A stretch of 34,320 nt of DNA from Promethearchaeota archaeon (GTDB taxonomy: Archaea > Asgardarchaeota > Lokiarchaeia > Sigyniarchaeales > SOKP01), in NCBI GenBank assembly GCA_048939015.1, contig JBHLPW010000052.1, positions 1 through 34,320 on the forward strand, read 5' to 3'. Position numbers and translations under genes: made by a program. The notes below the pieces were generated by a model, which had not been told where the DNA came from, did not search any database, and saw nothing but the letters and a program-made list of their open reading frames with translations. Of this stretch, positions 21,198 through 30,523 are shown one piece after another. Position 1 is the stretch's first letter; each line of letters opens with the position of its first letter.

Positions 21198-22139
21198 TTA
21201 AGAATAATTTAACATCTTCTCAATAGGTTGTATTGCACGTTTTGCAATCTCAGGAGGGACTTTAATTTCAAAAGCACGGTCATCTAAATTCTCTAAGAGA
21301 TATTTAATCAATTCTAGATTATGTTTCTTCATATTATAGCAGATTAATTTGTCCATCACGGAGTAAAAGTTTTTATCTGGAAAATCTTGGGTTATTCTCT
21401 CTAAGAACCCAAGTTCAGTACCAACAATAAAGTCTTCTTCCCCAGGACTGCTATTCTTAACTCTATTATACATTTGTGCTGTTGATCCTACAAAATCAGA
21501 TAATTCTCTAACTTCCCTTTTACATTCAGGATGAACTATGAGAGTTGCACCTGGGTGAGCTTGGCGTGCATCTTTAACATGGCCCACTTTAATTTGGGAA
21601 TGTACATAACAGTGACCATTATCAGGCATCTGAATACAGCTTATACCAGAATACTTTTCAGCATAATCTGCTAAATTTGCATCTGGCCCGAAGAGAACCT
21701 TTTTTACATCAAATTCTGTACTAATCCTTTTTACTATACTAACTGCATTTGAAGAAGTACAGCATATATCAGATTCAGCTTTAACAGCTGCAGTTGAATT
21801 AACATAAACGACAACGGGAATAGATGGATATTCTTTTTTAAATTCCTTAACCATTTCAGGAGTTAGAAAAGCTGCCATTGGACAGCATGATTCATAATTC
21901 GGAATTAATACATGTTTATCTTGATTAATTATTGAAGCAGTTTCAGCCATGAAATCCACACCTGCAAATATTATGTATTCTGAATTAGTTTTACTAGCCT
22001 TACGAGATAATCCAAGTGAATCCCCTACATAATCAGCGATTTCTTGTATTTCTATTGGTTGATAATAATGAGCTAAAATAGTTACACCATCAATTTTTTT
22101 TAATGATAAAATTTCTTCCTGCAATTGCTTTTTTGTCAT
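21198..22139 (-). CDS. nadA: Quinolinate synthase A
   Basis: ILAHYYQ, VGDSLGL, GVDFMAETA, CPMA, YVNS, CCTSSNA, CYVH, HPEC, GST and ICYNMK. Confidence 0.97.
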   Translation of the reverse strand: MTKKQLQEEILSLKKIDGVTILAHYYQPIEIQEIADYVGDSLGLSRKASKTNSEYIIFAGVDFMAETASIINQDKHVLIPNYESCCPMAAFLTPEMVKEFKKEYPSIPVVVYVNSTAAVKAESDICCTSSNAVSIVKRISTEFDVKKVLFGPDANLADYAEKYSGISCIQMPDNGHCYVHSQIKVGHVKDARQAHPGATLIVHPECKREVRELSDFVGSTAQMYNRVKNSSPGEEDFIVGTELGFLERITQDFPDKNFYSVMDKLICYNMKKHNLELIKYLLENLDDRAFEIKVPPEIAKRAIQPIEKMLNYS

Positions 22140-22260
22140 ATTAAAATTAAATAATTTTGACGTGTTTTAATATTTATAAATAAAGTAACCTAAAATAAGT
22201 TCTTTTATAATGAATAATAAAAAAAAAAAGAGTAATCAAGAAGAATAAAAATTTAATTTA

Positions 22261-23127
22261 TTATATACTAAAGATTTCTCTAAATTTATTTTGATCTACG
22301 ACGTTTGCTGCTAAAATGCTAGCCATCGAACTAATGCCTGTATTGTGTCCTTGTTTATTGAATCCTGCACAAAATTCGCCACAAACATAAACATTCCTAA
22401 ATTTATGAATAATCATTAGTTCAAATGCTAAAAGAAAAACTTTAACATTAGTGATTACACCAAATACTCCGATTTTTACATCTTTATGGGAGCTTCCTGC
22501 ATTCTTAATAACTGTCTCTAGTACAGATTCGAGATCTGTCTCATCAAATGAACTAAGACTATTAGAATTTATTATTACGTTGAAATCATGATGTTCTTGT
22601 ATTAGCTCATCCAATGGTGATACAAATTTAGCTCCATAAGTGCCCTTTATACAATGGGGTCCAAAAAGATCCATTTCTCCTTTTTGAGATTCATCTGTAA
22701 TATCATGCCAATCTCTTAGATGAATGCATTGATATTCTAATCCGCTGTTATCATCTGAATTTGATTCAGAAGCTTTATTCATTAAATCTCGTATAAATTG
22801 TCTCAATTTATCTCCTTCCCATAATCTTCTTGATTCATCATAATCAACATGAACTCTTTGTCTGTAATATTCTAAAATATGATGGTAAGATATGGGGGTT
22901 TCTATGACCTCATTGCTAACATTTTGCTTTAGCCATTGTATAAACTTGTCGATATTTGCTTCACTAGTGTCTCTATTCTGATTTAAGAAATATTCCATCC
23001 ATTTCTGTGAGACTTGTTCGTAACCTACTTTCAAATCATCAATTGCAATTATATTATTATCTAATGGTTCAATAAAATCGTTCTGAACAGAACACGTAAT
23101 GATAACATTTAATTTTTTATTTTCCAA
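22261..23127 (-). CDS. Isochorismatase/nicotinamidase-fold protein with a divergent active site
   Basis: VQNDFI, RDWH and FGPHCIKGTYGA are PncA-like. GVITNVKV replaces the canonical GxATDxCV. Confidence 0.82.
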   Translation of the reverse strand: MENKKLNVIITCSVQNDFIEPLDNNIIAIDDLKVGYEQVSQKWMEYFLNQNRDTSEANIDKFIQWLKQNVSNEVIETPISYHHILEYYRQRVHVDYDESRRLWEGDKLRQFIRDLMNKASESNSDDNSGLEYQCIHLRDWHDITDESQKGEMDLFGPHCIKGTYGAKFVSPLDELIQEHHDFNVIINSNSLSSFDETDLESVLETVIKNAGSSHKDVKIGVFGVITNVKVFLLAFELMIIHKFRNVYVCGEFCAGFNKQGHNTGISSMASILAANVVDQNKFREIFSI

Positions 23128-25567
23128 ATTTCTTTCTCCTCCTTTTTCTCATTTTTTCATCCAATTCATCTATATCAATATCTCTTTTCTTTCCACTGCG
23201 TGATTGCACTATCATCATTATAAAAATGATAACAATAATACCAATAGACGCAACATTAACAATTGTCGAAATCATGTTAAGCATTGTCTCATCAATTTCC
23301 AAAGAGGTTAATCCCTCTTCAATGAAACCCCAAAAACTCAATATAAATTCAATAATGATAATTTTCGCAAAATATTCATCAATCATTTTCCCTAGTTTTG
23401 ATTTCAAACCTTTACCAATTTGAACTTTAGTTTTCGGAGTTAAAGGATAGATAAAATTATTTTTAAAAGCTTCAATGATTTTGAAATCATCTTGGTTACT
23501 TGTAGTTGATTCTGAAGGCTCCAATGTTTCTGTATATTCTACAGTTATTTTTCTTATAAAAATATTAGCAAAATCCTCTACAGAATACCCTTCATCAATT
23601 TGAAAAGTGCAATCTGCGTAATAAATACTTTCAGGTTTTTTAATCTCCTTAACTTTATCTAAGGATCGTGTTGGATTTGTTAAAATTCGTAGGAAATTTT
23701 TGGAATAAGTGAAATCAGAGAACATTAAAGTATCCTTATCTCCTCGATCATCTTCAATATCTATAGTAATATTGTTTAATAAGGGAATGAAGCTTGTTTG
23801 AACTCTATTTAATACCATTAAAAACCTAATTTGAGTCTGAGTTCGATCTTTTAAAATTATATAAGGCAGTTCTCGAGATTGGGTCGTTATTTCTACGAAA
23901 TTGGAATCTTCAATTTTTTCACCCATTTCTGAAGTTGTCAAATATAAATTAAAGCTCCATGGAATATCCGGTAATTTAAAAATTGAATTTCTTATACTAT
24001 TCCAATATGCAGTATAGTTTTGTTTTACGCCAAGCATGAATTCTTTTTGAGATTTTAACTTCGATTCAAAATTCATAAATGATGGTATAAAGAAAGAACC
24101 AAGTTCTCGCATATCGTATTCTATTTTTTGTTCTGTTTTACTTGCTAATTCGATTTTCCTTACTTTAATTAATCGTTTTTTAATAATGTTATATAATTCA
24201 TTCAGAGTGTCTACATTTTCAGGACTGTATTTAGCGAATTGTTTCAGATTATCTCCATAGATCTTTCTATACAACTCTGGATCATTTTTCTTTATGAATT
24301 TAAGTTGTTGGATAAAGTGCCAGACACCACCAAAATTACGTAGTACTAAAATCTTATTATACTTAGAGACAATGATGTAACGATTATCGGGAGTTACCTT
24401 AATATTTTTTACAAAGTTTAATCCTTTCACTTGGATTTCTTTTATTATATTTTTTTCTTCATAAAGGTCGATGTAGTGTCCTAGATCTATGCTTCTTATC
24501 CAATTGAATTCACTCAAGTCCCAGATTTTTATCGTATTATCTTTTGAAGCTGATATCAAATAATTTTCATCAGTCTGTAAATCAATAGCTAAAACAGCTT
24601 CAGTATGTCCAATGAGTTCTTTCTTTTTATTAAACAAATTTTCAATATTTCTTTCCCAGATATTAATTACGGCATCAGTAGAAGAAGTTGCTATCCATTT
24701 ACCATTCCTGCTTATACTTATATCTGTGATTGCACCATCATGTTCACCGATTAATACAGAATCTGTTCCTGCTGTAATATTCCATAATTTTACTTTGCCA
24801 TCTTTAGAACCAGAAATTATAATATCTTCTTTAACCCACCTATTGATCATTATTTTGGTAATCCAAACATCATTCGTTCCAATTGCATGAATTTCACCAT
24901 TTTTAGAAACCAAACCAGAATCACCTATAGTAACTTCAATTTCATTTAAAGTATTATCATGAGTTTTTTCTTTCCATATTGTTGTATGTATGTTATTTAG
25001 CGTATAATAAATATGAAGTAAATCATTCTGATTTGGATCTTCTTGAATTTTAATATCAAATATAGATTTTGGATACTGTTTTGGATCTTCACTTCCTCCA
25101 GAAAGAATATTTGACTTATAGTTTTCAAAATCCCATTTCCTTGAACCCTGTGGCAATTTAAAACTCCAGATATATATATCGCCAATTATACTTCCAGCAC
25201 ATATTATCCACCATTTAACATTTCCTTTCTCAACAACAGTTGAATCAATGCAGAGTAACCAATTTGTAACCCTTACGAGTTCATGCTTTTTCTTCTCTGC
25301 TTGAAGGATTATTTCTGGTTTAGTTTCACCTTCTAAAAGTTCATCAATGTTCCATACAATTAAATGCGGATCTTCATTTTCTTCACATTCTGAGCAAGAT
25401 ATTAGGAATTTTCCATCCGGACTAATTTCAATGTCTCTTACTTCAAGTTTATGTTGTGATAATACAGTTTGAATTGCTTTTTTAGAGACTTTTGCTTCAC
25501 TAGAGATTTTTTCGTTTTTATCTTTCTTAGAAATTCTACTTTCGAAGGACCTAGTTTCCATTTTCAT
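23117..25567 (-). CDS. WD40 beta-propeller protein with a C-terminal two-TM anchor
   Basis: WD repeats SGSKDGKVKLWN, TSSTDAVINIWE and GHTEAV...SASKDNTIKIWD; two hydrophobic helices near the C-terminus, then a basic tail. Overlaps the downstream gene by 11 nt. Confidence 0.88.
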   Translation of the reverse strand: MKMETRSFESRISKKDKNEKISSEAKVSKKAIQTVLSQHKLEVRDIEISPDGKFLISCSECEENEDPHLIVWNIDELLEGETKPEIILQAEKKKHELVRVTNWLLCIDSTVVEKGNVKWWIICAGSIIGDIYIWSFKLPQGSRKWDFENYKSNILSGGSEDPKQYPKSIFDIKIQEDPNQNDLLHIYYTLNNIHTTIWKEKTHDNTLNEIEVTIGDSGLVSKNGEIHAIGTNDVWITKIMINRWVKEDIIISGSKDGKVKLWNITAGTDSVLIGEHDGAITDISISRNGKWIATSSTDAVINIWERNIENLFNKKKELIGHTEAVLAIDLQTDENYLISASKDNTIKIWDLSEFNWIRSIDLGHYIDLYEEKNIIKEIQVKGLNFVKNIKVTPDNRYIIVSKYNKILVLRNFGGVWHFIQQLKFIKKNDPELYRKIYGDNLKQFAKYSPENVDTLNELYNIIKKRLIKVRKIELASKTEQKIEYDMRELGSFFIPSFMNFESKLKSQKEFMLGVKQNYTAYWNSIRNSIFKLPDIPWSFNLYLTTSEMGEKIEDSNFVEITTQSRELPYIILKDRTQTQIRFLMVLNRVQTSFIPLLNNITIDIEDDRGDKDTLMFSDFTYSKNFLRILTNPTRSLDKVKEIKKPESIYYADCTFQIDEGYSVEDFANIFIRKITVEYTETLEPSESTTSNQDDFKIIEAFKNNFIYPLTPKTKVQIGKGLKSKLGKMIDEYFAKIIIIEFILSFWGFIEEGLTSLEIDETMLNMISTIVNVASIGIIVIIFIMMIVQSRSGKKRDIDIDELDEKMRKRRRKKFGK

Positions 25568-25704
25568 TACTTTTGATAAGATATATTTTGAATTTTTTTA
25601 ATTAGATTTATAATTATATGAAAGCAAACATATAAAAATTCTTAAGCGTCAATAATTGTACTAATCAATATGTACAACAAAATTTCAATCATAATTTCTA
25701 TTAG

Positions 25705-28089
25705 GTGATAATTATTGAACAATTAAAAGAATATAATGGGGTTTTTTTAATAGCATCAGAAGTAGAATTCCTTGAGGAAATTGAGAAATTAATAGGTGAA
25801 ATGATTCCTTGTCGTGAAAATAGGGATGAATCTAAAGAGCAACATGCACAACAGACGATGGCATACCAACCTCCTCCAACTCAAATGTCTGCCGAGACGA
25901 TTTTATATCAGCAAGCTCAAGCACTAAAAGCTCAAGCAGCACAACAAGAACAATTGGCACAGTTACCGTTAGAACAGTTAGAAAATACTTATATAAATCA
26001 GTATATGGCGCAAGTAAACCCAGCAATGCAGGCAAATATTCAAGCACAGCTTAATTCTCTCATACCAATGTTAGGAGAAGACCATCCTTCTGTACTGCAA
26101 ATGAAAGAAATATTAGAAATGGATGAAGACAAAGCACAACAAAAAGGAAGGGCAATGGCATTGTTTATGCAGGAAAACTTTAAACTTCAAAAGATAAACA
26201 AACAGGAAACTCAAAGAATTCAGGATGTAATGTTTTCTCAAATATCCTTTGAAGAATTGGAAAAGGAGAGTATCATATATTATAATTCAATTATAAATCC
26301 AGAATATCAAGAACAATTGAAAATAACTGTTGATGTTGGGATTCAACAATTGGGTACTGACGACCCCACTTTAGCTGGTTTGAAACCTTTATTGGGCTTG
26401 AATAAAGAATCAGCTATCCAAGCTGCTAAACAACATGCTCAAACAGTATATCAAAATATTCAAAATATCCTAGCTCAGTACGGGGTTCAAACACAAGCTC
26501 CACAAGAGTCGCAAGAAGACAAAATCGAACAATATAAGCGAGAAATCTCTGAGAAACCTGTCGATGTAAGCCATTTTGGTTATGCCTGCGATAATAAGCG
26601 CATAATTGGTCTCAATTTAGTAATGAAAGATTTGGATATCTTACCAGATAGAATTGGAAATTTATCCAAATTACGATTCTTAGATCTCCAATGGAATAAA
26701 ATTGATTCATTACCCGAAAGTTTTGGTAATCTAGTAGAGTTAGAAGAGTTAAATTTGAATGGATCTTGGTCATCAAATGATGATAAAGCAATATATAATG
26801 CAGTCACAGAACTTCCTCAATCATTTTGTAATTTGAAAAATCTCAAAAAGTTCACATGTGAATCTAATGGATTAAGGAATCTTCCCGTTAATTTTGGAGA
26901 GTTATCTTCCCTTAAGAAAATTAATTTAGGTACAAATAGGATAACTGAAATCCCAGAATCAATAGGCAATTTAATTAATTTAACTAGTTTAGATCTTGGA
27001 AGTAACAGAATTTCAAATATTCCTTCCTCACTTTATAAATTAGAAAGACTAGATGATCTGGTTCTTTCTTACAATAATATAGAATTAATTCCTGAATGCA
27101 TTGATCAATTAAAATCATTATCCAGGCTTTTTTTACGTGGTAATAAAATAACATCGTTGCCGGATTCTATCTCAAATTTAGAGAAATTGGATACTTTATG
27201 GCTTGCTGAAAATGGGTTAACCGAAATTCCTGAGAATATTACTAAGCTGAATTTAAGAGACTTAAGTATAGGCGAGAATCAACTTAAAAATCTTCCATAT
27301 TTTATATATACAATGGAATCTTTGAAAGATCTAGACATTGCTGGTAATCCTTTCTCGGAGGAAGAACAAAGTATTGCCCAAAGAGATACTAATGCTATTC
27401 TAGAATATTGTCGTCAGCGAGCAAGCATAGCAGTTATGTTAATTCACACTGAAGTTGATTCCGAGGCTCATCGTATAGCAGAATTATCTGAATTTTTAGA
27501 AACCAAAAGTGAAATATATGCTATCCTTCCTCCTATAGAATCTAACCTTAATGCTACTGATTTAGTTTTATTTCTTGCCACAGCTGGCTCTATCAATTCT
27601 CCAGAAATGGTTCAAATCTTAAAAAATGCTAAGAGTCAGGGTATTGAGGTAGTGCCTTTAAAAGGCTTAGATGTTAGTTGGGGCGACCTTGCCAGTGTAG
27701 ATCTTAGCCGTGAGTTAGGACATGAATTTACTCCTAATGATTTCAATGGTTTTTGTGAGAATGTATATAGTTATATCCAGCAATTAAAACGGTCACATAA
27801 TATCTTTAAGGATAAATCTACAATCCTACTAAAAGAAGCAGCAGCAGAAGTTGGGGATCCTACAGGTTTTGGAACATTTAAAGCCGAACTTGATCGCATA
27901 TTTCATTTACCTGAAATGAAGGAATTTTTTGAAAAGAACCAGACATCATTAACTGGAATATGTAATAACCTTCAATCTGCAAAAGTCGGGGGAGAAGGAT
28001 TATTTCTAACTCAACTTTCTGCCTTTTTCATGGGATTTATACAACAAAAGAAGGCTATGCAACAATATTTTGGAGGTGGGCAACAATGA
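25705..28089 (+). CDS. LRR protein with a Q-rich repeat insertion and a degenerate C-terminal TIR-like domain
   Basis: About 10 LPESxGNLxxL-type LRRs. The C-terminal region aligns to the TIR of the next gene. The GTG at 25705 lies inside the GGTGA SD, so the true start may be ATT at 25711 or 25714. Confidence 0.85.
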   Translation: MIIIEQLKEYNGVFLIASEVEFLEEIEKLIGEMIPCRENRDESKEQHAQQTMAYQPPPTQMSAETILYQQAQALKAQAAQQEQLAQLPLEQLENTYINQYMAQVNPAMQANIQAQLNSLIPMLGEDHPSVLQMKEILEMDEDKAQQKGRAMALFMQENFKLQKINKQETQRIQDVMFSQISFEELEKESIIYYNSIINPEYQEQLKITVDVGIQQLGTDDPTLAGLKPLLGLNKESAIQAAKQHAQTVYQNIQNILAQYGVQTQAPQESQEDKIEQYKREISEKPVDVSHFGYACDNKRIIGLNLVMKDLDILPDRIGNLSKLRFLDLQWNKIDSLPESFGNLVELEELNLNGSWSSNDDKAIYNAVTELPQSFCNLKNLKKFTCESNGLRNLPVNFGELSSLKKINLGTNRITEIPESIGNLINLTSLDLGSNRISNIPSSLYKLERLDDLVLSYNNIELIPECIDQLKSLSRLFLRGNKITSLPDSISNLEKLDTLWLAENGLTEIPENITKLNLRDLSIGENQLKNLPYFIYTMESLKDLDIAGNPFSEEEQSIAQRDTNAILEYCRQRASIAVMLIHTEVDSEAHRIAELSEFLETKSEIYAILPPIESNLNATDLVLFLATAGSINSPEMVQILKNAKSQGIEVVPLKGLDVSWGDLASVDLSRELGHEFTPNDFNGFCENVYSYIQQLKRSHNIFKDKSTILLKEAAAEVGDPTGFGTFKAELDRIFHLPEMKEFFEKNQTSLTGICNNLQSAKVGGEGLFLTQLSAFFMGFIQQKKAMQQYFGGGQQ

Positions 28090-30488
28090 GCGATCTATAT
28101 ATGGGTTTTACACTTCCTACTGAAGAGATAGATGTTCTTAAAGATTTAGAACAAAAAATGGGATCAGGTTGGAGTACTGATAATTTTCGAGTCGAAAATA
28201 ATCACGTTACTAGGATTCAAGTAACTAGAGGAACATTGACAGGGCTACCTGAAAATATTGGTAATTGTAAATATCTCAATGCGCTTCTTTTCTACGGTAA
28301 TAAAATTGAGTCTCTCCCAAATTCTGTTGGAAAATTAACAAATTTAGAGTGGCTTTCGGCGCAACAAAATAGACTTTACGAACTCCCTTCTACTTTAGCT
28401 AACTGTACCGCTTTGAAAGAACTTAATTTGGGAGTTAATGAATTAAGAGAATTACCAAGCTGGATTTCCAATCTTAAAAATCTAGAGAAACTGGATCTTC
28501 GCTCTAATAAATTAAGAGAAATACCCGTAGAAATCGAAGCTTGTATAGCATTAACTGACCTTGATTTAAGTGATAATAGACTTACTCAAATTCCAGAAGG
28601 TATCTATAATCTTATTGCTCTCCAAAAATTATCACTCAGACATAATAACGTTGAAAAGATACCACCTGCTATTGGTCAACTTAAATCTCTTACTTCGCTT
28701 GATCTAGGAGTAACTCGAATCTCTCAATTACCAGACTCAATAGGAGAATTAATTTCACTTGAGAGCTTAGAGATTAGTTCAATGGGATTGCAAATTTTAC
28801 CTGACTCAATAGGTAATTTATCAAATCTGCAGACTCTTCTTGTAAAGGAAAATAAACTTGGAACCTTACCAGAAAGCATTGGCAATTTAACATCATTGAA
28901 AGTCTTTCGTTTTGAGAGAAATCAAATCAAACAAATTCCAGAATCGATTGGTAATTTAAGAAATTTGAGTACGATAGATATGGGAAATAATCAAATAGAA
29001 ACTTTGCCTGAATCAATTAGTAATTTAGACAATGTATTTGGATTAGATTTAAGTGGAAATAATATAACAACTTTACCCCAGTCATTTGCACACATGAAAG
29101 GATTAGAGCGTCTCAGTATTCAAGATTGTAAGATCACTAATTTGCCAGAAAACTTTGGTGATCTTGAGAAATTATCTTATCTAGATATTAGAAACACACC
29201 CTTATCAGTCCTTCCTGAATCAATTGGATCATTGAGAAATATGTGGTATTTAGTTGTTTCAAATGGAAAACTAAAAACATTACCTGCAAGTATTGGCGAG
29301 TTAGAGAAATTAAAGGAATTACATTTAGAAGGTAATGAAATTGAAAGGTTACCAACCGAGATAGGTGATTTGAAAAGTTTGGAGAAGTTGATTTTAAGTA
29401 AGAATCAATTAATTAATCTTCCTCCTACTATTTGTAATTTAGACTCTTTAAAGGAACTAAGAGTTGATGAAAATGTATTAGTTTCATTACCTGATTGCCT
29501 TGATAATATGAGATCTCTTGAGAATTTTTATGCGTATAGAAATAGATTAACCTCCCTACCAGAATCTATCGGGCGATGCGAAAGATTAGAATCGTTAAAT
29601 TTAAATGAAAATGATCTGGGTAGTTTACCGAAAAGTTTGGGAAATTCCAAGATTAAATATCTATATTTAAATAAGAATAAATTTGAGAAATTGCCTTATA
29701 TTCTCTGGCCACTTGAAACTCTTGAAACATTTGAGTTTGAAGAAAATCCATTATCAGATGAAGAAAAACAAATAGTCAAGCGTGATCTTGATACACTTCG
29801 TGACTATCTCAAGCAAAGAGCTAGTATGGCAATTTTTATTTCTCATGCTGTAGTTGATTATGAACCTTATCAATTGGCAGCTTTAGGTGAATACTTAGAA
29901 GCTAAACCTGAAGTTTATGATGTGCTTCTCTGCGAGCAAGATCTATCCGGAAATATTGATGAATTTATGGATAACAATGTTCCTATAAGTGATGTCATAT
30001 TCTTCTTAGGTACTAATAAATCTGTATTCAATTCAGTTGATTGTGCTCATGAATTAGAACTTTCTCGTAAGCATGATGTACCTGTCTTATCTATGAAAGG
30101 AACAGATGTTTCTTGGTCAGATATAGTATCTATAGGTCTTAAACAAGATCCTGGGATTGACTACAATCCGCAAGAATTTGAACTGGTTTGTGAGCGGATT
30201 TATAAATATGTTAAACAATTCCATAAGGATCATCCCTTATATAAAATTAAAAAAGTTGAGGAAGAAGAGGAACCCGTTACTATTCCTACAACTATAGATT
30301 GGGACACATTTATAGGGATGCTAGAAGAAATAGTAGAATCTGATAGATTAAGACAATTTCATGAAAGTAAAAAAAATGAACTTGGTGCTCTTATATCACA
30401 ATTAAAAAGTGGTTCCATGAATGATGCAAATTTCATGATGCAATTTTCTCAAATATATTCGCAATGGTTAATGATGCAACAAATTTGA
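28086..30488 (+). CDS. LRR-TIR protein
   Basis: About 22 LRRs of 23 aa, then a TIR domain: IFISHA...SDVIFFLGTNKSVFNSVDCAHELELSRKHDVPVL. ATGA overlap with the upstream gene. Confidence 0.9.
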   Translation: MSDLYMGFTLPTEEIDVLKDLEQKMGSGWSTDNFRVENNHVTRIQVTRGTLTGLPENIGNCKYLNALLFYGNKIESLPNSVGKLTNLEWLSAQQNRLYELPSTLANCTALKELNLGVNELRELPSWISNLKNLEKLDLRSNKLREIPVEIEACIALTDLDLSDNRLTQIPEGIYNLIALQKLSLRHNNVEKIPPAIGQLKSLTSLDLGVTRISQLPDSIGELISLESLEISSMGLQILPDSIGNLSNLQTLLVKENKLGTLPESIGNLTSLKVFRFERNQIKQIPESIGNLRNLSTIDMGNNQIETLPESISNLDNVFGLDLSGNNITTLPQSFAHMKGLERLSIQDCKITNLPENFGDLEKLSYLDIRNTPLSVLPESIGSLRNMWYLVVSNGKLKTLPASIGELEKLKELHLEGNEIERLPTEIGDLKSLEKLILSKNQLINLPPTICNLDSLKELRVDENVLVSLPDCLDNMRSLENFYAYRNRLTSLPESIGRCERLESLNLNENDLGSLPKSLGNSKIKYLYLNKNKFEKLPYILWPLETLETFEFEENPLSDEEKQIVKRDLDTLRDYLKQRASMAIFISHAVVDYEPYQLAALGEYLEAKPEVYDVLLCEQDLSGNIDEFMDNNVPISDVIFFLGTNKSVFNSVDCAHELELSRKHDVPVLSMKGTDVSWSDIVSIGLKQDPGIDYNPQEFELVCERIYKYVKQFHKDHPLYKIKKVEEEEEPVTIPTTIDWDTFIGMLEEIVESDRLRQFHESKKNELGALISQLKSGSMNDANFMMQFSQIYSQWLMMQQI

Positions 30489-30500
30489 AAACGATATAAA

Positions 30501-30523
30501 TTTCTTTTTTTTCCTTTTTTTTG
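30501..30523 (+). terminator. Oligo-T terminator of the LRR-TIR pair
   Basis: TTTCTTTTTTTTCCTTTTTTTTG 13 nt after the stop, and a small hairpin TGAGA-ggtt-TCTCA at 30531-30544. Confidence 0.5.

Follow-up and report, generated by a model that had tools for sequence, protein, structure and literature searches.

A co-inherited pair of leucine-rich repeat TIR genes, one with a competent and one with a degenerate TIR domain, in Asgard archaea

Contig JBHLPW010000052.1 of a Promethearchaeota archaeon (assembly GCA_048939015.1), analysed here over positions 1 to 34,320 of the forward strand (the window), carries two tandem genes that each encode a leucine-rich repeat (LRR) solenoid, a TIR-type domain and a helical C-terminal tail. 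We find that these genes, denoted gene 1 and gene 2, are a real, conserved two-gene LRR-TIR module in which the TIR of gene 2 is competent and that of gene 1 is disabled. The competent gene and its degenerate paralog are inherited together as an obligate unit and, judging from their sequences, the two proteins probably work as a two-part receptor. TIR domains are a signalling and enzyme module common to bacterial, plant and animal immunity, and how their assembly is licensed is an active question. Literature searches returned no description of Asgard LRR-TIR pairs; if the assignment made here is true, it would be the first case in archaea of a TIR enzyme paired with a TIR pseudoenzyme.

A conserved module of a competent and a disabled TIR gene

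A preliminary description of the locus had called the two genes paralogs, and alignment bears this out. BLASTP aligned the proteins over 500 residues through the C-terminus (E 1e-75, 30% identity), and profile-profile alignment of the C-terminal halves with hhalign gave a probability of 99.96% (E 4.5e-39, 227 columns). The cap said to be shared by both proteins, NPxSxEE...RD...Y..QRAS, was found in each, and a sequence check showed every quoted motif and codon to be exact in both genes (coordinates are collected in Table 1).

AlphaFold models were built from family alignments (pLDDT 82.9 for gene 2 and 83.8 for gene 1), and both C-terminal halves model as TIR folds. The gene 2 model matched the RPS4 TIR (4c6t_D) with Z 15.0 and a root-mean-square deviation of 2.5 A over 132 residues, and the SPARTA TIR with the same Z. 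Nearly all of its best 35 structural matches were TIRs, and its ESM Atlas neighbours were all TIR_2 clusters. A TIR fold at the C-terminus of gene 1 had been named beforehand as a test; the predicted gene 1 model matched the SPARTA TIR 8ifl_F (Z 13.7, 2.1 A over 116 residues), followed by RPS4 4c6t_D (Z 13.4), SNC1 and RUN1. By sequence, Pfam TIR_2 (PF13676) was matched by 23 of 41 aligned family members (best E 2.6e-8), and matches to related STIR-clan families came up too. The gene 1 TIR gave no TIR_2 match in the Pfam search, and PDB sequence searches with the gene 2 C-terminus and the family profile as queries found no TIR.

The marks of an enzyme-type TIR, namely the alphaC glutamate, Box 1 and the BB loop, are all present in gene 2 and all lost in gene 1. 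In gene 2, Box 1 reads FISHA at residue 584. E656 lies in helix alphaC with S-x-x-C-x-x-E-L spacing, which is that of SSWCLDEL in AtTIR and SDWCWDEL in Cat1, and is invariant among gene 2 orthologs. The corresponding glutamate of TIRs is reported in a published survey to be critical for NADase activity (PMC7075850). Gene 2 thus appears to carry a complete enzyme-type TIR, for which a prediction of NADase activity is well motivated. In gene 1, MLIHT at residue 578 stands in place of FISHA, and the BB loop falls in a single gap of 11 residues relative to gene 2 in the profile-profile alignment, close to the deletion of about 10 residues estimated earlier. At the site of the catalytic glutamate all gene 1 orthologs have I, L, V or M.

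The two genes stay together. Orthologs of the gene 1 C-terminus comprise about 30 full-length proteins of 775-794 residues with the same start, and distant ones down to 45% identity, under source names of Promethearchaeota or Lokiarchaeota. In every locus inspected a gene 2 ortholog directly follows the gene 1 ortholog, and this adjacency, with an overlap or a gap of at most 14 bp, holds in at least seven genomic contexts, even where identity has fallen to about 40%. The loci include four of the same genus (L001, L002, L003 and L034) and others of different genera with unrelated neighbours (L015, L017/L018, L019, L027, L029 and L038). When we counted the gene 1 matches whose downstream DNA could be inspected, each strong match was followed on its own strand by a second match, some 2.4 kb further downstream, in all ten pair-bearing genomes of the genus sample as well as in genomes G006, G016 and G045. 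No solo ortholog of gene 1 or gene 2 was seen in whole-genome searches. FISHA, the BB loop and the glutamate are missing from every gene 1 ortholog, and FISHAV, CEQDLSGNID and NSxDCxHE are present in every gene 2 ortholog; the pairing of a glutamate-bearing with a glutamate-lacking TIR, whose recurrence was also a test set beforehand, is found at every ortholog locus examined, in the at least seven contexts. The distribution of the module is patchy, indicating an accessory module: of 41 genomes from the genus of the window 10 carry the pair, and gene 1-type proteins occur in 9 of 301 sampled genomes of the Asgard phylum, all from two families of one order.

Coupling of the two genes by an ATGA overlap, as proposed in the preliminary description, agrees with the coordinates of the open reading frames (ORFs). 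At nine of nine loci with a clear gene 2 start, GGAGG or GGGGT is positioned at -14 to -10, within the last codons of gene 1. Together with an oligo-T tract downstream of gene 2, the overlap and the embedded ribosome-binding site point to a single operon in which the two genes would be co-transcribed and translationally coupled. An obligate two-subunit unit would fit both the position of the gene 2 ribosome-binding site inside gene 1 and the complementary retention of motifs described below.

Gene 1 ends in a conserved Gly-Gly because the codons of these glycines, GGAGG(T), are also where ribosomes would bind to start gene 2. Here and at the orthologous loci one DNA stretch is constrained doubly, as protein and as translation signal. 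A ubiquitin-like reading of the Gly-Gly terminus, considered in view of a ThiF gene nearby, was rejected on this ground, and on the second ground that ThiF stays at the locus with or without the pair.

Duplication, divergence and selection

Maximum-likelihood trees of the TIR-plus-tail region, with single-gene Asgard LRR-TIR proteins as outgroup, recovered a gene 1 clade (support 100/100), a gene 2 clade (100/99) and a sister relation between them (99/96). The stem measured 0.97 for gene 1 versus 0.56 for gene 2. This indicates that a soluble LRR-TIR gene was duplicated once in tandem, and that gene 1 then went through a burst of change followed by conservation. Within the genus the TIRs share about 81-86% identity, with omega values of 0.08-0.10 for gene 1 and 0.09-0.16 for gene 2, and the LRRs share 62-72% identity with omega 0.15-0.23; all omega values are rough, since dS is near saturation. 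The low within-genus omega reflects purifying selection, so that gene 1 is not a decaying pseudogene.

The two proteins conserve different parts of the domain. In a matched sample of nine genomes, gene 2 is almost invariant across betaB, the BB loop, alphaB, betaC and alphaC, and gene 1 is invariant at SRELGHE, DFxGFC and flanking residues, which the models place between alphaD and alphaE. Single-gene relatives keep both the catalytic and the SRELG motifs in one protein, so that ancestral features have been split between the duplicates. These relatives fall into groups of 450, 558 and 629 residues, include one protein of Promethearchaeum syntrophicum, and form the outgroup from which the pair arose; they agree with it in cap and TIR subfamily, and partly in the helical tail, and differ in holding in one polypeptide what the pair divides over two genes. 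The genome that carries the pair also encodes a canonical single-gene 558-residue protein of this kind, with both motif sets (locus L005, G000:C14:34051-34662).

Further tandems of a canonical and a degenerate TIR gene occur outside the clade of gene 1 and gene 2, in related genomes. The degenerate gene is upstream in L030 (G026:C375); it is downstream in L031 (G026:C368), with a BB-loop deletion and Val in place of the glutamate. L033 (G055:C35) is a convergent arrangement in which one of the two genes has lost the BB loop by deletion.

A candidate two-part receptor and its alternatives

In TIR assemblies of the BE type the BB loop of one TIR docks head-to-tail on the betaD/betaE/alphaE (EE) surface of the next, an arrangement used by scaffold-type and enzyme-type TIRs alike, and among enzyme TIRs both the opening of the NAD+ site and NADase activity depend on this contact (PMC8635717). 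We propose an asymmetric hetero-oligomer of the BE type, which the gene 1 and gene 2 proteins could form by way of their TIR and tail domains. In it the BB loop and the sole active site would come from gene 2, and the acceptor (EE) surface from gene 1. Such an arrangement would fit the division of features between the two TIRs, where gene 1 retains its betaD-alphaD-betaE-alphaE region under strong purifying selection. Lacking a BB loop, gene 1 could not extend the chain, and could thereby license or cap assembly. Ligand binding by two different LRR solenoids would control assembly and, through it, whether gene 2 cleaves NAD+ or produces a signal. From the sequences and predicted models we infer heteromer formation, which like NADase activity is well motivated, together with BE geometry, LRR sensing and a biological role. 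Taken whole, a coupled LRR-TIR pair that forms an asymmetric BE hetero-oligomer with gene 2 as the LRR-controlled enzyme seems to us about evenly balanced between being right and being wrong.

The input sides are likely to be the two different LRR arrays and an insertion unique to gene 1. This Q-rich, helical segment in the N-terminal LRR cap holds two LGxxHP-type hairpins that weakly resemble TPR_10/TPR_12 and has no Pfam match. A profile of it, run against 1.84 billion representatives, retrieved the gene 1 orthologs and weak matches to KLC-type TPR repeats only. An ESM Atlas feature search with the N-terminal 295 residues of gene 1 gave nothing usable. The insertion was also considered as an integrated decoy, and this was rejected because a stand-alone homolog is absent among the same representatives.

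A more far-reaching formulation, which we put forward tentatively and regard as possible though doubtful, would make the pair a minimal, NTPase-free TIR receptor of two subunits. The pseudo-TIR would be reduced to an EE surface only, the paralog would contribute the single active site together with the BB loop, and one asymmetric heterodimer would be the licensed catalytic unit under two LRR sensors. On this formulation canonical-plus-degenerate LRR-TIR pairs would have evolved repeatedly in Asgard archaea as an archaeal counterpart of the paired TIR receptors of plants.

Several results weigh against the proposed receptor. The gene 2 C-terminus scored 17.7 bits against TIR_2, below the cutoff of 28, although membership of the TIR superfamily holds by transitive homology and fold despite this score. 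The conserved motifs are placed on the EE surface by secondary-structure positions in predicted models only. Independent origin of the L030, L031 and L033 tandems is provisional because the branches are long. No fused form of gene 1 and gene 2 was present among proteins of 1391-3970 residues, which is weak evidence. A PADLOC search with both proteins and their C-terminal halves gave no match apart from noise at E 0.054; the pair loci inspected contain no recognisable defence island, their neighbours being metabolic or regulatory, and no effector gene is conserved beside the pair at the loci compared. Finally, over 70% of all TIRs carry the glutamate, whose presence does not by itself predict activity (PMC7075850). 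An immune role is plausible given the TIR, the LRRs and the patchy distribution, and a role in conflict or stress is likely.

The pair might instead be a scaffold-type TIR signalling unit without NAD+ chemistry, made of cytosolic adaptors or receptors that perhaps act with the transmembrane (TM) TIR receptors of the genome; we consider this unlikely. MAL and MyD88 signal with Toll-like receptors by TIR-TIR assembly, and the genome encodes at least five single-pass ectodomain-TM-TIR proteins as well as one TIR protein with four TM helices. Locus L032 of a related genome has the same TIR subfamily (FISHAV...CEEDLTGNID) right after a TM helix. Head-to-tail assembly of the BE type underlies scaffold TIRs too (PMC8635717), and the glutamate alone does not prove catalysis (PMC7075850). 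However, the canonical members all keep the glutamate, Box 1 and an invariant BB loop, and the partner loses exactly these, a pattern of retention and loss more typical of an enzyme and its pseudoenzyme. Moreover, no kinase or other downstream client of a scaffold is linked to the module.

It is distinctly improbable that the paralogs act independently, with gene 1 a neofunctionalised LRR protein whose TIR-like domain has an unrelated job and with linkage left over from the duplication. The different numbers of LRRs and the N-terminal insertion of gene 1 would be expected under such a history. The adjacency with an embedded ribosome-binding site, conserved across contexts to the identity given above, the lack of any solo ortholog and the complementary retention of motifs relative to the single-gene proteins all argue for two partners of one unit.

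We compared this candidate two-part receptor with known systems. Its closest functional analogue is the plant RPS4/RRS1 pair, and its closest structural relatives are the prokaryotic TIR_2 enzymes (SPARTA TIR-APAZ, AbTir and Cat1). In RPS4/RRS1 one partner has a signalling-competent TIR, the other is a non-catalytic sensor/regulator, and the TIRs form a heterodimer. Like the Asgard pair, these are two genetically linked, paralogous receptors with LRR and TIR. Their TIRs are among the best structural matches of both models, with RRS1 (4c6s) at Z 13.5 for gene 2 and 12.1 for gene 1 beside the RPS4 values given above. In contrast to the plant receptors, the Asgard proteins have no NB-ARC or P-loop and place the LRRs before the TIR rather than in the order TIR-NB-LRR. 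Their genes are co-directional and overlapping, not head-to-head, they carry no recognisable integrated decoy (the gene 1 insertion has no stand-alone homolog), and their origin is independent and archaeal. Asgard pairing is convergent with that of RPS4/RRS1-type pairs.

With AbTir, SPARTA TIR-APAZ, Cat1 and Thoeris ThsB, gene 2 shares Box 1, the BB loop and the alphaC glutamate. The SPARTA TIR (at the Z given above) and AbTir (Z 13.2) match its model, and members of the family match TIR_2. The Asgard pair differs from these enzymes in having no linked Argonaute, CARF, SLOG/SIR2 or other known partner, in its N-terminal sensor, a long LRR solenoid, and in its dedicated pseudo-TIR paralog. Thoeris has a linked SIR2/SLOG effector, ThsA. 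The Asgard pair differs from Thoeris and from the other catalogued TIR defence systems in having neither a PADLOC match nor a linked effector.

The preliminary description had pointed out that LRR plus TIR is the domain combination of Toll-like receptors. This stands at the level of domain names, since both run from LRR to TIR along one polypeptide; it goes no further, because the Asgard LRRs are SHOC2/LRRD1-like and the module occurs in one Asgard order only. The Toll-like-receptor analogy is thus weak. The Asgard pair, unlike animal Toll-like receptors, has no signal peptide or TM helix, and its LRRs are closest to those of cytosolic SHOC2/LRRD1 (in a PDB sequence search the gene 2 LRRs matched LRRD1 at E 4e-94 and SHOC-2 at E 2e-71). 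That neither protein has a TM segment or a P-loop proved right: KD19 reaches 1.31 in gene 1 and 0.90 in gene 2, the Walker A motif is absent from both, and Pfam searches of the full-length proteins returned LRRs only and no NTPase. The proteins are accordingly not Toll-like receptors, NLRs or Roco proteins, as had been stated. The narrow and patchy distribution speaks for a lineage-specific invention, not for an ancestor of Toll-like receptors, and tempers claims about the origin of immunity.

The pair offers a naturally split system, in which the catalytic pocket and BB loop sit on one and the putative acceptor surface on the other of two co-inherited proteins, so that two small soluble domains would suffice for testing the model of head-to-tail activation. 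The pair also shows that the closest archaeal relatives of eukaryotes built and paired LRR-TIR receptors without an NTPase switch.

Genomic neighbourhood and other TIR proteins

Within the genus the pair is flanked by genes for a WD40 protein, an isochorismatase-like protein and nadA on one side and by a hexapeptide-transferase gene and ThiF on the other. The WD40 protein is tail-anchored by a single TM helix at its C-terminus (residue 769, KD 2.97).

A larger system centred on NAD, to which the pair would belong together with the WD40 protein, the isochorismatase/nicotinamidase-fold protein and nadA, is very improbable. TIR NADases release nicotinamide, the WD40 and isochorismatase-like genes adjoin the pair in ten of ten pair-bearing genomes of the genus, and L001 has a second isochorismatase gene after gene 2. 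The link is weak nonetheless, and such a four-gene system was rejected as unsupported outside the genus and separable within it. The pairs of other genera (L015, L017, L019, L027, L029 and L038) lack nadA, WD40 and isochorismatase neighbours. Moreover, 12 of the 41 genus genomes have both a WD40 and an isochorismatase-like gene, and among these G330 has nadA, the isochorismatase-like gene and WD40 followed directly by ThiF, with no pair; G249 holds distant homologs of the two genes, also with no pair. The pair-bearing members may form one subclade, so that the co-occurrence would not be independent evidence, and genomes free of the block carry other NAD-related genes such as NUDIX in the interval from nadA to ThiF, indicating that NAD genes cluster there regardless of the pair. 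Absent at the other-genus pairs and separable within the genus, the NAD genes are not counted as part of the module.

The nadA-ThiF interval is a variable spot beside nadA. Two genus members without the block (L035, G322:C5, and L036, G011:C19) hold different cargo there, either a 557-residue protein with a terminal NUDIX domain or a NUDIX protein with an aminotransferase and an MFS transporter.

Table 1. Features of the LRR-TIR pair and its surroundings. Positions refer to the window except where a locus handle is given
Feature	Position	Strand	Basis
536-residue LRR protein, no TIR, 6 kb upstream of the pair; syntenic in genus relatives, ~42% identity	18324-19934	+
nadA, 288-residue isochorismatase-fold and 816-residue WD40 genes; overlapping unit divergent from gene 1	21198-25567	-
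AT-rich intergenic stretch that separates gene 1 from the divergent, minus-strand WD40 gene; presumed promoter	25568-25704	.	sequence read only
Gene 1 ORF, LRR and pseudo-TIR, 794 residues, GTG start	25705-28089	+	ORF, translation
Gene 1 Q-rich helical insertion in N-terminal LRR cap, residues ~43-290 (~250 residues)	25831-26574	+	ortholog alignment
Gene 1 LRR solenoid, ~11 repeats, residues ~296-555	26590-27369	+	Pfam LRR_14, LRR_8, LRR_4
Gene 1 pseudo-TIR, residues ~572-705	27418-27819	+	AlphaFold model, structural matches, conservation
I638 codon, site of TIR catalytic Glu; NSPEMVQIL at 631	27616-27618	+	sequence, profile alignment
Gene 1 C-terminal helical tail, residues ~715-794, homologous to gene 2 tail	27847-28086	+	alignment
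GGAGGTG, Shine-Dalgarno-like, for gene 2, within gene 1	28072-28078	+	sequence, ortholog loci
ATGA start/stop overlap of gene 1 and gene 2	28086-28089	+	sequence
Gene 2 ORF, LRR-TIR, 800 residues	28086-30488	+	ORF, translation, Pfam
Gene 2 LRR solenoid, ~22 repeats, residues ~46-560, SHOC2/LRRD1-like	28221-29765	+	Pfam, PDB sequence search
Gene 2 TIR, residues ~578-715	29817-30230	+	AlphaFold model, structural matches, family TIR_2 matches
BB loop of gene 2 (CEQDLSGNID, residues 616-625), deleted in gene 1 and invariant among orthologs of gene 2	29931-29960	+	alignments
E656 codon, candidate catalytic Glu; NSVDCAHEL at 649	30051-30053	+	sequence
Gene 2 C-terminal helical tail, residues ~735-800	30288-30485	+	model, alignment
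Oligo-T tract just 3' of gene 2 stop; likely archaeal terminator	30501-30522	+	sequence read
TM-TIR proteins (at least five single-pass and one with four TM helices)	L020:599-4294	-
	L020:5524-12087	-
	L021:801-6218	+
	L021:8620-12711	+
	L022:1199-4165	+
	L023:341-2401	-

The helical tail was also considered as an adaptor domain common to other proteins; this was rejected, as a search of this genome found it in the pair only, apart from one match at E 0.004.

The TM-TIR proteins lie on contigs C21, C6 and C90 of the same genome (G000). In the single-pass ones a signal or anchor and a large ectodomain precede one strong TM helix, after which come a cytoplasmic linker and the TIR at the C-terminus, which is the topology of a Toll-like receptor. 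Their TIRs score above the Pfam cutoff for TIR_2 and have FISYS and the conserved glutamate (S..AV.DEW), and their ectodomains are SBP_bac_5, Peripla_BP_6, a NosD beta-helix or fn3/PKD. At L032 (G014:C4:17000-26000) two adjacent membrane proteins carry a FISHAV...CEEDLxGNID TIR right after a TM helix, so that this TIR type serves cytosolic LRR and extracellular inputs alike.

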